From a virus (taxonomy: Duplodnaviria > Heunggongvirae > Uroviricota > Caudoviricetes): a DNA stretch of 7,568 nt. The position numbers and the translations under genes are program-made. The notes beneath the pieces are model-generated. The model did no database searches. It was not told where the DNA came from and was given only the letters and a program-made list of their open reading frames with translations. Positions 4,893 through 5,836 of this stretch are shown here, piece after piece. How positions within the stretch are numbered: the first letter of the stretch is position 1; every line of letters starts with the position of its first letter. The stretch is taken from IMG/VR virus record IMGVR_UViG_2671181118_000002; one strand, written 5' to 3'.

Positions 4893-5232
4893 TAGCTAAC
4901 CAACGAAGCTAAGGTTGGTAATTAAGGAGTTCTCCACGGGTGAGGTGGAGTGCGTGCGCCGGACACGGGTGAGCATCCGGCACTGACAGTTTACTGAAAG
5001 GATATTTCCATGAAAAGTCAGACCATAACGCGAAAGCGCACGGCGAGGTAGCTGGTTCATAGATAACCTGTCGTTAAATTTTCGTCGACCGTGCGCTTCC
5101 GGTTGTGGCACTCCGCGAAATGGCGCGGCGGTAAGTATGGCGGGGTTATTCCTTCCCCGTTGAGGACATCGGGTTGTCAGGTTGACCATACGCTTAAGTG
5201 ACAACCCCGCTGCAACGCCCTCTGTTATCAAT

Positions 5233-5285
5233 TTTCTGGTGACGTTTGGCGGTATCAGTTTTACTCCGTGGCTGCTCTGCCGCCC
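5233..5285 (+). ncRNA. dicF: DicF small regulatory RNA
   Basis: TTTCTGGTGACGTTTGGCGGTATCAGTTTTACTCCGTGGCTGCTCTGCCGCCC followed by TTTTT matches the DicF sequence as I recall it, possibly with one substitution. Lies between ydfC-like and dicB, as in the Qin prophage. Confidence 0.85.
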
Positions 5286-5290
5286 TTTTT
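5249..5290 (+). terminator. Intrinsic terminator-like 3' hairpin of DicF with T-run
   Basis: GGCGG (5249-5253) pairs with CCGCC (5280-5284) around an imperfect inner stem; TTTTT at 5286-5290. Confidence 0.5.
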
Positions 5291-5295
5291 AAAGT

Positions 5296-5442
5296 GAATT
5301 TTGTGATGCGGTGAATGCGGCTCAGCGCACGCGGAACAGTTAAAACCAAAAACAGTGTTATGGGTGGATTCTCTGTATCCGGCGTTAATTGTTAACTGGT
5401 TAACGTCACCTGGAGGCACCAGGCACCGCATCACAAAATTCA
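5296..5442 (+). repeat. 18-bp perfect long-range inverted repeat between the DicF 3' end and the dicB RBS; candidate RNase III processing stem
   Basis: GAATTTTGTGATGCGGTG at 5296-5313 and its exact reverse complement CACCGCATCACAAAATTC at 5425-5442. Confidence 0.5.
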
Positions 5443-5459
5443 TTGTTGAGGACGCGATA

Positions 5460-5648
5460 ATGGAAACGTTATTACCAAACGTTAATACGTCTGAAGGTTG
5501 TTTTGAAATTGGTGTCACTATCAGTAACCCTGTATTTACTGAAGATGCCATTAACAAGAGAAAACACGAACGGGAGTTATTAAATAAAATATGCATTCTT
5601 TCAATGCTGGCCCGTTTACGTCCGATACAAAAAGGATGCTGGCAATGA
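5460..5648 (+). CDS. dicB: DicB cell-division inhibitor (62 aa)
   Basis: Within six-frame ORF 5355..5648. ATG at 5460-5462 preceded by GAGGA gives METLLPNVNTSEGCFEIGVTISNPVFTEDAINKRKHERELLNKICILSMLARLRPIQKGCWQ, recognised as DicB. Directly downstream of DicF. Confidence 0.85.
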   Translation: METLLPNVNTSEGCFEIGVTISNPVFTEDAINKRKHERELLNKICILSMLARLRPIQKGCWQ

Positions 5649-5836
5649 ATACAGCATTTGCACTTGTTCTGACAGTTTTTCTTGTTTCCGGAGAGCCAGT
5701 TGATATTGCAGTCAGTGTTCACAGGACAATGCAGGAGTGTATGACTGCAGCAACCGAACAGAAAATTCCCGGTAACTGTTACCCGGTCGATAAAGTTATT
5801 CACCAGGATAATATCGAAATCCCGGCAGGTCTTTAA
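5645..5836 (+). CDS. ydfD: YdfD-like small membrane/lysis protein (63 aa)
   Basis: Within six-frame ORF 5591..5836. ATG at 5645-5647 overlaps the dicB TGA (ATGA). Product MNTAFALVLTVFLVSGEPVDIAVSVHRTMQECMTAATEQKIPGNCYPVDKVIHQDNIEIPAGL. Confidence 0.8.
   Translation: MNTAFALVLTVFLVSGEPVDIAVSVHRTMQECMTAATEQKIPGNCYPVDKVIHQDNIEIPAGL

Follow-up and report, generated by a model that had tools for sequence, protein, structure and literature searches.

An STnc100-like RNA module, closed by a long helix that is probably cut by RNase III, lies between dicF and dicB in a lambdoid prophage

The 7,568-nucleotide (nt) stretch of DNA analyzed here (IMG/VR record IMGVR_UViG_2671181118_000002; hereinafter, the window) carries the early-left operon of a lambdoid prophage, with the gene order ydfA-ydfB-ydfC-dicF-dicB-ydfD-exonuclease. 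Gene identities were taken from record annotations, for dicB from RefSeq entries for two closely related loci: the window is 99.6% identical to a prophage of Escherichia coli O80:H26 EC-107, and positions 5200-5660 are 96% identical to Qin, a prophage carried by E. coli K-12, which aligns gap-free in this region (K-12 coordinate = window coordinate + 1,644,149). The small RNA (sRNA) DicF was recovered as a match to Rfam RF00039 at 5234-5285 (75 bits), and the K-12 dicF gene (1649382-1649434) corresponds gap-free to the annotated position in the window (5233-5285). A terminator scan placed a terminator-like site at 5268-5283, followed by a T-run. The subject of this report is the spacer that follows, between the DicF terminator and dicB. 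No plus-strand sigma-70-like site that could serve as a dicB promoter was found inside it, in agreement with Ragunathan 2023. The spacer is a conserved multi-helix RNA of ~148 nt, and the long stem formed by its two ends is the closing helix (P1) of that RNA, not a stand-alone hairpin.

The two ends of the spacer form a perfect inverted repeat, TGAATTTTGTGATGCGGTG (5295-5313) and CACCGCATCACAAAATTCA (5424-5442), with arms of 19 nt separated by 110 nt, which was the sole perfect inverted repeat of at least 12 nt that a repeat search returned within the window. The repeat is real: in 300 dinucleotide-preserving shuffles of the window (loop of up to 400 nt), the longest perfect inverted repeat averaged 10.7 nt with a maximum of 16 nt, and none of the shuffles reached 19 nt. 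A preliminary description of this DNA, made from the letters alone, had reported an 18-bp perfect stem here. Its 5' arm (5296-5313) stands, while its 3' coordinates were off by one (the exact reverse complement is 5424-5441), and the helix is one pair longer than claimed; once the extra pair, T5295-A5442, is counted, the arm does end at 5442. The 3' arm does end 18 nt ahead of the dicB ATG (5460), as had been stated, and the dicB Shine-Dalgarno (SD) sequence, GAGGA, lies 5 nt beyond it. On the other side, the 5' arm begins 4 nt (AAAG) past the five-T run of the DicF terminator.

The arm duplex has a predicted energy of -30.0 kcal/mol. Partition-function folding gave all 19 pairs a probability of 0.99 to 1.0 in three modeled read-through RNAs (i.e., with their 5' ends at the start of DicF, at the T-run, and at the end of the 190-nt precursor discussed below), which agrees with the earlier proposal that the stem forms in a read-through transcript, and the minimum free energy (MFE) structure of positions 5230-5470 includes the stem (z = -4.4). 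The K-12 stem contains two adjacent G·U pairs and is predicted at -25.2 kcal/mol. The helix can also be lengthened outward: the T-run together with AAAG (5286-5294) is complementary to 5443-5452, including GAGGA, in a G·U-rich pairing that brings the duplex from -30.0 to -34.7 kcal/mol. In this U-tail extension, the first two pairs have probabilities of 0.88 to 0.98 and the remainder 0.15 to 0.5.

The sequence between the arms, which had been treated as a plain loop, is itself folded. The module combines P1 with two blocks of conserved sequence, three to four hairpins in its interior (P2 to P5), and one hypervariable insert, which is enclosed by P3 (about 5340-5375) and differs in length and sequence among copies (Table 1). 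To score this structure as read off the window (19 bp in P1, 4 in P2, 3 in P3, 8 in P4, and 5 in P5), we used an alignment of 78 distinct copies that was built with MAFFT without structural input (alignment A1), and we compared it with controls in which the 3' partners were slid by 1 to 3 columns. Standard pairs occupied 94.2% of the cells (31.6 to 39.8% in the slid controls), 19 pairs were changed on both sides (7 to 12), 156 cells carried double changes (16 to 51), and the covariation score was 0.214 (0.024 to 0.056). None of 500 shuffles reached any of the observed values, although these shuffle counts are not probabilities, as the homologues are mutually related.

Table 1. Positions of the RNA module and its flanking features in the window
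Feature	Position	Strand	Basis or remark
DicF sRNA and terminator five-T run	5233-5290	+	Annotated 53 nt at 5233-5285; T-run at 5286-5290
AAAG linker, T-run to 5' arm	5291-5294	+	With the T-run, may extend the helix by pairing with 5443-5452
P1 5' arm	5295-5313	+	Repeat search, covariation; published 72-nt DicF end at ~5304/5305
P2 hairpin UGCG-GCUCAG-CGCA	5316-5329	+	Alignment A1; variation in the loop only
P3 basal pairs GGA/UCC (5333-5335 with 5378-5380)	5333-5380	+	Covariation; RNAalifold independently
P4 hairpin GGCGUUAA / UUAACGUC, conserved loop UUGUUAACUGG	5381-5407	+	Covariation, RNAalifold
P5 hairpin CCUGG-AGGCA-CCAGG, stacked directly on the 3' arm	5409-5423	+	Covariation; common to the Rfam STnc100 consensus
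P1 3' arm	5424-5442	+	Repeat search, covariation; partner cut expected at ~5433/5434-5435 (2-nt 3' overhang rule)
dicB Shine-Dalgarno GAGGA	5448-5452	+	Sequence
dicB, toxic cell division inhibitor, 62 amino acids	5460-5648	+	Open reading frame; RefSeq annotation of near-identical loci

Conservation of the arms in homologous operons, which had been named beforehand as a test of the stem, was accompanied by compensatory changes. Double-sided changes were present in 12 of the 19 P1 pairs, as is apparent when the arms of the window (UGAAUUUUGUGAUGCGGUG / CACCGCAUCACAAAAUUCA) are compared with those of copies that precede a 94-amino-acid open reading frame (ORF) (GCGAAUUUUGUGGUGUGGUG / CACCGCACCA-ACAAAAUUCGC), of IMG/VR contig L114 (AACAGGCUUUGCAAUGCGGUG / CGCCGCAUUGCAAAGCCUGUU), and of Citrobacter braakii (AACGAAUUUUGUAGUGCGGUG / CACCGCACCACAAAGUUCGUU). 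In the interior, two of the three basal pairs of P3 (e.g., A-U to C-G in 23 sequences) and four of the eight pairs of P4 (97.5% paired) changed on both sides, and P5 changed from U-A to G-C in 16 sequences. P5 was 100% paired, though the pattern used to search for homologues fixed much of it together with the five innermost bases of the 3' arm, so that the invariance of these positions is partly a collection effect. P2 was 99% paired with zero double changes and is hence weakly supported; an alternative register, as in the MFE structure of 5230-5470, is possible. RNAalifold, given the alignment alone, recovered the inner 9 bp of P1 as well as P3, P4, and P5. Two copies have broken long helices: one at L120 889-1046, which looks recombinant in that it combines a window-type (dicB/kil) 5' arm with a 3' arm of the 94-amino-acid-ORF type and has 7 contiguous pairs left, and one at L003 1582-1742 (Shigella phage 75/02 Stx), in which a G-to-A change leaves 10 contiguous pairs. 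These findings fit recombination inside the module.

The substitutions also indicate which molecule is constrained. Since G·U cells outnumber A·C cells three to one in the alignment (156 versus 52), the constraint acts on the plus-strand RNA. This preference makes it very improbable that the segment is instead a DNA-level feature (i.e., the terminal inverted repeats of a miniature mobile element, the boundary of a recombination module, or a protein-binding palindrome), a view to which the perfect 19-bp arms, the mosaic homology breakpoints at the arm ends, the occurrence of the segment in many different gene contexts, and two GTTAAC sites in the interior would lend themselves. The internal helices covary as well, and the second GTTAAC is lost where compensatory changes keep P4. 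Moreover, the orientation always follows transcription and the position is always just ahead of an ORF, the flanks (AAAG versus TTGT) show no target-site duplication, and all matches are in phage, prophage, or plasmid operons, with no copies at unrelated chromosomal sites. For the same reasons (i.e., no target-site duplication, copies co-oriented with phage operons, and substitutions that keep the RNA paired), a miniature inverted-repeat mobile element was rejected despite the inverted ends. An intrinsic terminator was also rejected, as the 3' arm is followed by UUGUUGAGGA with no U-run and the terminator scan returned the DicF terminator (5268-5283) only, and so was a tRNA-like reading of the four-way junction, as ARAGORN found no tRNA or transfer-messenger RNA genes in the window.

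The module resembles the STnc100 family. In a permissive Rfam scan, window positions 5297-5437 matched RF02076 STnc100 with 37.4 bits (E = 1e-6); the 8-bp closing helix of the model aligned to the inner stem, and hairpins of the P4 and P5 types were also placed on the window. Twelve relatives scored 30.5 to 43.8 bits against the same model. Copies from Pantoea and Erwinia that carry the same 26-nt 3'-block pattern, and that align with the window in A1, scored 59 to 95 bits; because these values exceed the gathering score, the copies connect the accepted members of STnc100 with the window element in a continuous series. The family's consensus fold was recovered with covariation (cmscan alignment, the 78 copies, and RNAalifold). 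Like STnc100 and its relative PasD, the window clade has a closing helix of the form GGUG.../...CACC with internal hairpins, carries the blocks GGUGAAU and UCACCnGGAGGCACCnGGCACC, and is borne by prophages or plasmids of Enterobacterales. The canonical STnc100 and PasD, neither of which has an established function, are found in the late operons of Stx (Shiga toxin)-, Fels-, and Gifsy-type prophages (downstream of stx2 and near Q/lysis genes), whereas the window clade is found in early-left operons before toxic ORFs, and the closing helix has 8 pairs in the family consensus but 17 to 29 in the window clade. The module is best explained as a divergent branch of STnc100/PasD that scores below the gathering level. 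Within the family, the Pantoea sp. App145 plasmid pAPP145_2 carries four tandem STnc100 copies, all above the gathering score at 65 to 69 bits, within ~1.1 kb (L140 894-2010, minus strand).

The spacer was present in 4,642 of 5,426 complete E. coli genomes, at a median of two places per genome, and the 3'-block pattern was present in at least 120 IMG/VR contigs and in 12 species representatives (Escherichia, Shigella, Klebsiella, Citrobacter, Pantoea, Erwinia, and two metagenome-assembled genomes). BLAST searches of phage and E. coli records indicated that, where phages lack dicB, their homology with the window stops at about 5444, i.e., at the end of the 3' arm, and that phages similar to phage P1 (P7 and D6) and P1-like plasmids match only the interior (5307-5430). 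The stem-bounded segment precedes dicB in Qin-type prophages, kilR/Kil in Rac-type prophages, an Stx phage, and others, and tciA/terB in the ban operon of P7 and D6; it was also found in a Klebsiella phage. It is always sense oriented and ends ~18 to 20 nt ahead of the next start codon, and in lambdoid early-left operons it usually lies right after the terminator of a DicF/KilS-type sRNA. The junction TTTTTAAAG is identical in copies of the dicB, kil, 94-amino-acid-ORF, and isrK/C4 types. In the Rac prophage of K-12, the recently named KilS sRNA (1418502 to 1418405) takes the position that DicF has in Qin, with the same terminator, AAAG, and 5' arm. These contexts are best accounted for by a portable cassette that stands ahead of dicB, kil/kilR, tciA of the P1 family, and other genes.

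Several observations concern these contexts. At K-12 NC_000913.3 1418251-1418502 (L015, minus strand), the KilS terminator T-run, AAAG, the 5' arm, an STnc100-like module, and kilR follow one another, and the Rac-type hairpins score below threshold (34 to 41 bits) against the Rfam DicF model. The helix of this kilS-kilR spacer contains a bulged A close to the expected cut. Matches to isrK and C4 antisense RNA occur up to ~70 nt past the module, in immI/ant-like regions (L137 3005-3424, L144 6729-6917, L148 5208-5396, and L014 1001-1314, the last with only the 3' third of the module); thus, the module precedes RNA genes too, beyond toxic ORFs.

The length of the closing helix differs with the context. 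Counted as pairs outward from the conserved GGUG/CACC, with single irregularities allowed, it comes to 27 to 28 pairs in dicB copies, a median of 28 in kil copies, 29 in copies before the 94-amino-acid ORF, and 21 to 22 in copies before an isrK/C4 module. Klebsiella-type copies have 14 to 17 pairs, the tciA copies of P1-like elements 8 to 9, and the STnc100 copies of Pantoea and Erwinia 7 to 11. The long, two-turn helix is thus derived and belongs to the cassette found past an sRNA terminator in lambdoid early-left operons.

A 72-nt form of DicF with an RNase III-dependent 3' end reportedly goes back to Faubladier, Cam, and Bouché, whose 1990 work is relayed here through three citing papers. 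Balasubramanian 2016 (PMC5069750) states that RNase III acts on the read-through dicBF transcript to give an alternative 3' end and a DicF of 72 nt, and Ponath 2022 (PMC9438474) and Chen/Morita/Gottesman 2019 (PMC6582626) likewise attribute the 72-nt DicF to RNase III; all three cite Faubladier 1990. Counted from the annotated DicF 5' end (K-12 1649382; window 5233), 72 nt lead to window position 5304 (K-12 1649453), and counted from the start of the Rfam match, they lead to 5305. These are nt 10 to 11 of the 19-nt 5' arm, so that the citing papers and coordinate arithmetic together place an rnc-dependent end in the middle of the arm. RNase III substrates are helices of ~two turns (roughly 20 bp, largely uninterrupted), and the helix offers 19 perfect pairs, or up to 28 with the U-tail extension. 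In a comparison of RNA-seq coverage between an rnc deletion mutant and the wild type (Gordon 2017, Table S1), an rnc-dependent peak was listed at K-12 1649470 ("dicF-dicB"; wild-type reads, 0/0; delta-rnc reads, 26; "Known: Yes"), which corresponds to window position 5321, 8 nt past the inner end of the 5' arm. We count this peak as weak corroboration because of the low positional resolution and the long, noisy tail of that data set. The earlier proposal that the stem suits RNase III, and that DicF arises in part by RNase III processing, is borne out by the 72-nt end and by this peak; it is correct in substance but was already published in 1990.

A better-documented RNase III site lies upstream of DicF, where cleavage gives the 5' end of a 190-nt species, as confirmed by primer extension (Ragunathan & Vanderpool 2023). 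In the window, a long irregular hairpin occupies 5023-5108 (inverted repeat, 5031-5043 / 5089-5101; MFE, -37.4 kcal/mol; z = -3.95), and 190 nt counted back from the DicF T-run lead to about 5100, within its 3' arm; this hairpin is probably the upstream site, at which the 190-nt precursor acquires its 5' end. The two sites share the transcript, the enzyme, and the form of a long DicF-flanking helix, and together they bracket DicF. They differ in that the upstream hairpin is irregular, lies ~130 nt upstream of DicF and outside the STnc100-like module, and has been reconfirmed by primer extension (Ragunathan & Vanderpool 2023). With regard to the Rac copy, the rnc-dependent kilR-sieB site of Gordon 2017 (1418510) was considered as evidence of cutting and rejected, as it lies 8 nt upstream of the 5' end of KilS, at a distance of over 100 nt from the module in Rac.

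Our preferred explanation, to which we assign a probability of roughly 0.7, is that the spacer is an STnc100-like module with a lengthened P1 that is cut by RNase III in mid-helix in DicF read-through RNA. In transcripts that extend past the DicF terminator, the plus-strand module between this terminator and the dicB ribosome-binding site would fold, with a P1 that in lambdoid copies appears to have been lengthened to ~two turns (17 to 22 pairs, up to 28 to 29 with the U-tail extension). RNase III would cut P1 near its middle. The cut in the 5' arm, after ~5304/5305, which gives the published 72-nt DicF, is supported by the literature together with the coordinate mapping; in the 3' arm, given the 2-nt 3' overhangs that the enzyme leaves, a partner cut would fall at ~5433/5434. 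These cuts would release a core of ~129 nt, the fate of which we infer, and which the inner 9 bp are predicted to keep closed (-16.6 kcal/mol). The dicB-ydfD mRNA would be left with a 5'-monophosphate leader of ~25 to 26 nt, and its expression might be affected; the outer half-duplex, between the tail of the 72-nt DicF and the dicB leader, is predicted to be weak (-9.5 kcal/mol).

A number of points weigh against this explanation. The match of the window to STnc100 (37.4 bits) stays below the gathering score of 47, and P2 differs from the family consensus (UGCG/CGCA here versus CCCCC/GGGG). The signal of Gordon 2017 is one of low coverage (26 reads) in a noisy list, with its peak 8 nt inside the loop and outside the arm. 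The 72-nt end is known through three citing papers, and its single-nucleotide position depends on the DicF 5' end from which it is counted. The newest experimental paper (Ragunathan 2023) covers the upstream RNase III site only and leaves the downstream one unmentioned, and no 3'-arm cleavage, excised core RNA, or effect on DicB is reported in the accessible literature.

The conservation pattern also bears on what the helix is for. Conservation is higher in the interior than in the arms, and the unpaired GGUGAAU, CAGUUAAAA, and the P4 loop UUGUUAACUGG do not vary among the copies from E. coli, Klebsiella, Citrobacter, and P1-like elements; the P1-like phages retain the interior with a closing helix of just 8 to 9 bp and without DicF. 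The conserved unpaired blocks and this survival with a short helix argue for a core function beyond that of a loop in an RNase III substrate. It is thus possible, though we consider it rather unlikely, that the helix chiefly closes a functional core, either an Hfq-associated sRNA of the STnc100/PasD kind that acts in trans or a cis binding platform, in which case the RNase III cut would be a means of core excision or incidental, and no device for making DicF or controlling dicB. The canonical relatives include PasD, a Northern-verified, Hfq-dependent sRNA (PMC8550237), and the inner 9 bp would keep the core closed after cleavage. Plasmid-borne dicF without the downstream site is fully functional (PMC6582626), so the site is dispensable for DicF activity. 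Yet no discrete ~129-nt RNA is on record for the dicF-dicB spacer or the kilS-kilR spacer, K-12 data from the ligation and sequencing of interacting RNAs (RIL-seq) include a call for KilS and none for the adjoining module, and the module lacks a terminator of its own. The helix reaches ~two turns selectively between an sRNA terminator and a toxic gene; this is the pattern that would be expected if RNase III cleavage were under selection, and it suggests that cleavage itself was selected.

The position of the module end, always just ahead of an SD, raises a further question, i.e., whether the stem and its U-tail extension form a translational gate that hides the dicB SD until RNase III cleavage frees it. 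The preliminary description had suggested something similar, namely that the stem could couple dicB translation to processing. The T-run and AAAG are able to pair with the SD-containing 5443-5452, and kil-type copies, which have a different sequence (UUUGUAAAAA) at the same place, keep the complementarity by A-U pairs; the kil-type extension, however, pairs with an A-rich stretch upstream of the SD and not with the SD itself, and in the window the extension is G·U rich with low pair probabilities beyond its start. Folding predicted no unmasking: the mean unpaired probability of GAGGA was 0.14 to 0.19 before cleavage and 0.20 after the modeled cut. Since the SD is equally inaccessible in both states, coupling is not supported and rates low, and a gate appears doubtful.

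More tentatively than for the cleavage itself, the STnc100-like module may be regarded as a widespread "insulator/processing cassette" of temperate phages, placed between an sRNA terminator and a toxic gene. In such a cassette, RNase III acting at the lengthened helix might simultaneously trim the read-through sRNA, excise a stable core of ~129 nt, and give the toxin mRNA a new 5' end; the core could have an Hfq-dependent or protein-binding function of its own, and the new 5' end could alter the stability or translation of the toxin mRNA. If this were true, the STnc100/PasD "sRNAs" and the leaders of dicB, kil, and tciA would constitute one RNA class sharing a biochemical activity. Long helices in early transcripts that are cut by host RNase III, affecting the mRNA of an adjacent gene, are familiar from phage lambda, in the N-leader stem and in sib retroregulation of int. 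There, the RNase III effects on N translation and int mRNA decay have been demonstrated, whereas any effect of the module on dicB is putative, and no sequence or structural homology between the two systems is known.

A stem suited to RNase III adds little by itself, as an RNase III cut downstream of DicF has long been known; by arithmetic, it is the same site at the same locus (Faubladier 1990, via PMC5069750, PMC9438474, and PMC6582626). For that site, the accessible literature gives the length of the product only, without the helix, the partner arm, its conservation, or the larger fold. The present analysis adds that this stem serves as the closing helix, in lengthened form, of a cassette of the STnc100 family. 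A link between the stem and an STnc100-type cassette shared by the leaders of dicB, kil/kilR, tciA, and other phage genes was not found in the literature searched. The DicF-dicB "spacer" is thereby recast as a folded RNA that is conserved and belongs to STnc100/PasD, a poorly understood family, in a cassette that precedes phage division inhibitors and toxic genes. This provides a testable link among a functionally uncharacterized Rfam family, processing by RNase III, and the way in which toxic genes of prophages are controlled, and it gives work on dicBF regulation (Ragunathan 2023) a reason to revisit the downstream site.

The window also contains an ORF of 97 amino acids that runs from a GTG at 5355 to 5648, in frame with dicB, and has its start within the RNA module. 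Presumably, it is the longer reading frame to which a 1988 title refers in mentioning "translation from an in-phase internal start." A coding role for the part that lies in the module was rejected: across copies, the insert lengths modulo 3 are distributed as 19/17/42, and because they are not multiples of three, the upstream part of the ORF is probably not coding.

Two records that surfaced in the searches look questionable. Aeromonas phage AP1 (MT713136.1; 249906-250152) and Actinobacillus phage vB_Apl-pPE4 (PP818812.1; L008) carry dicF/kil regions of the E. coli type, with 98% and 88% identity, respectively, despite their nonenterobacterial host labels, and the host labels or the assemblies of these records look doubtful.

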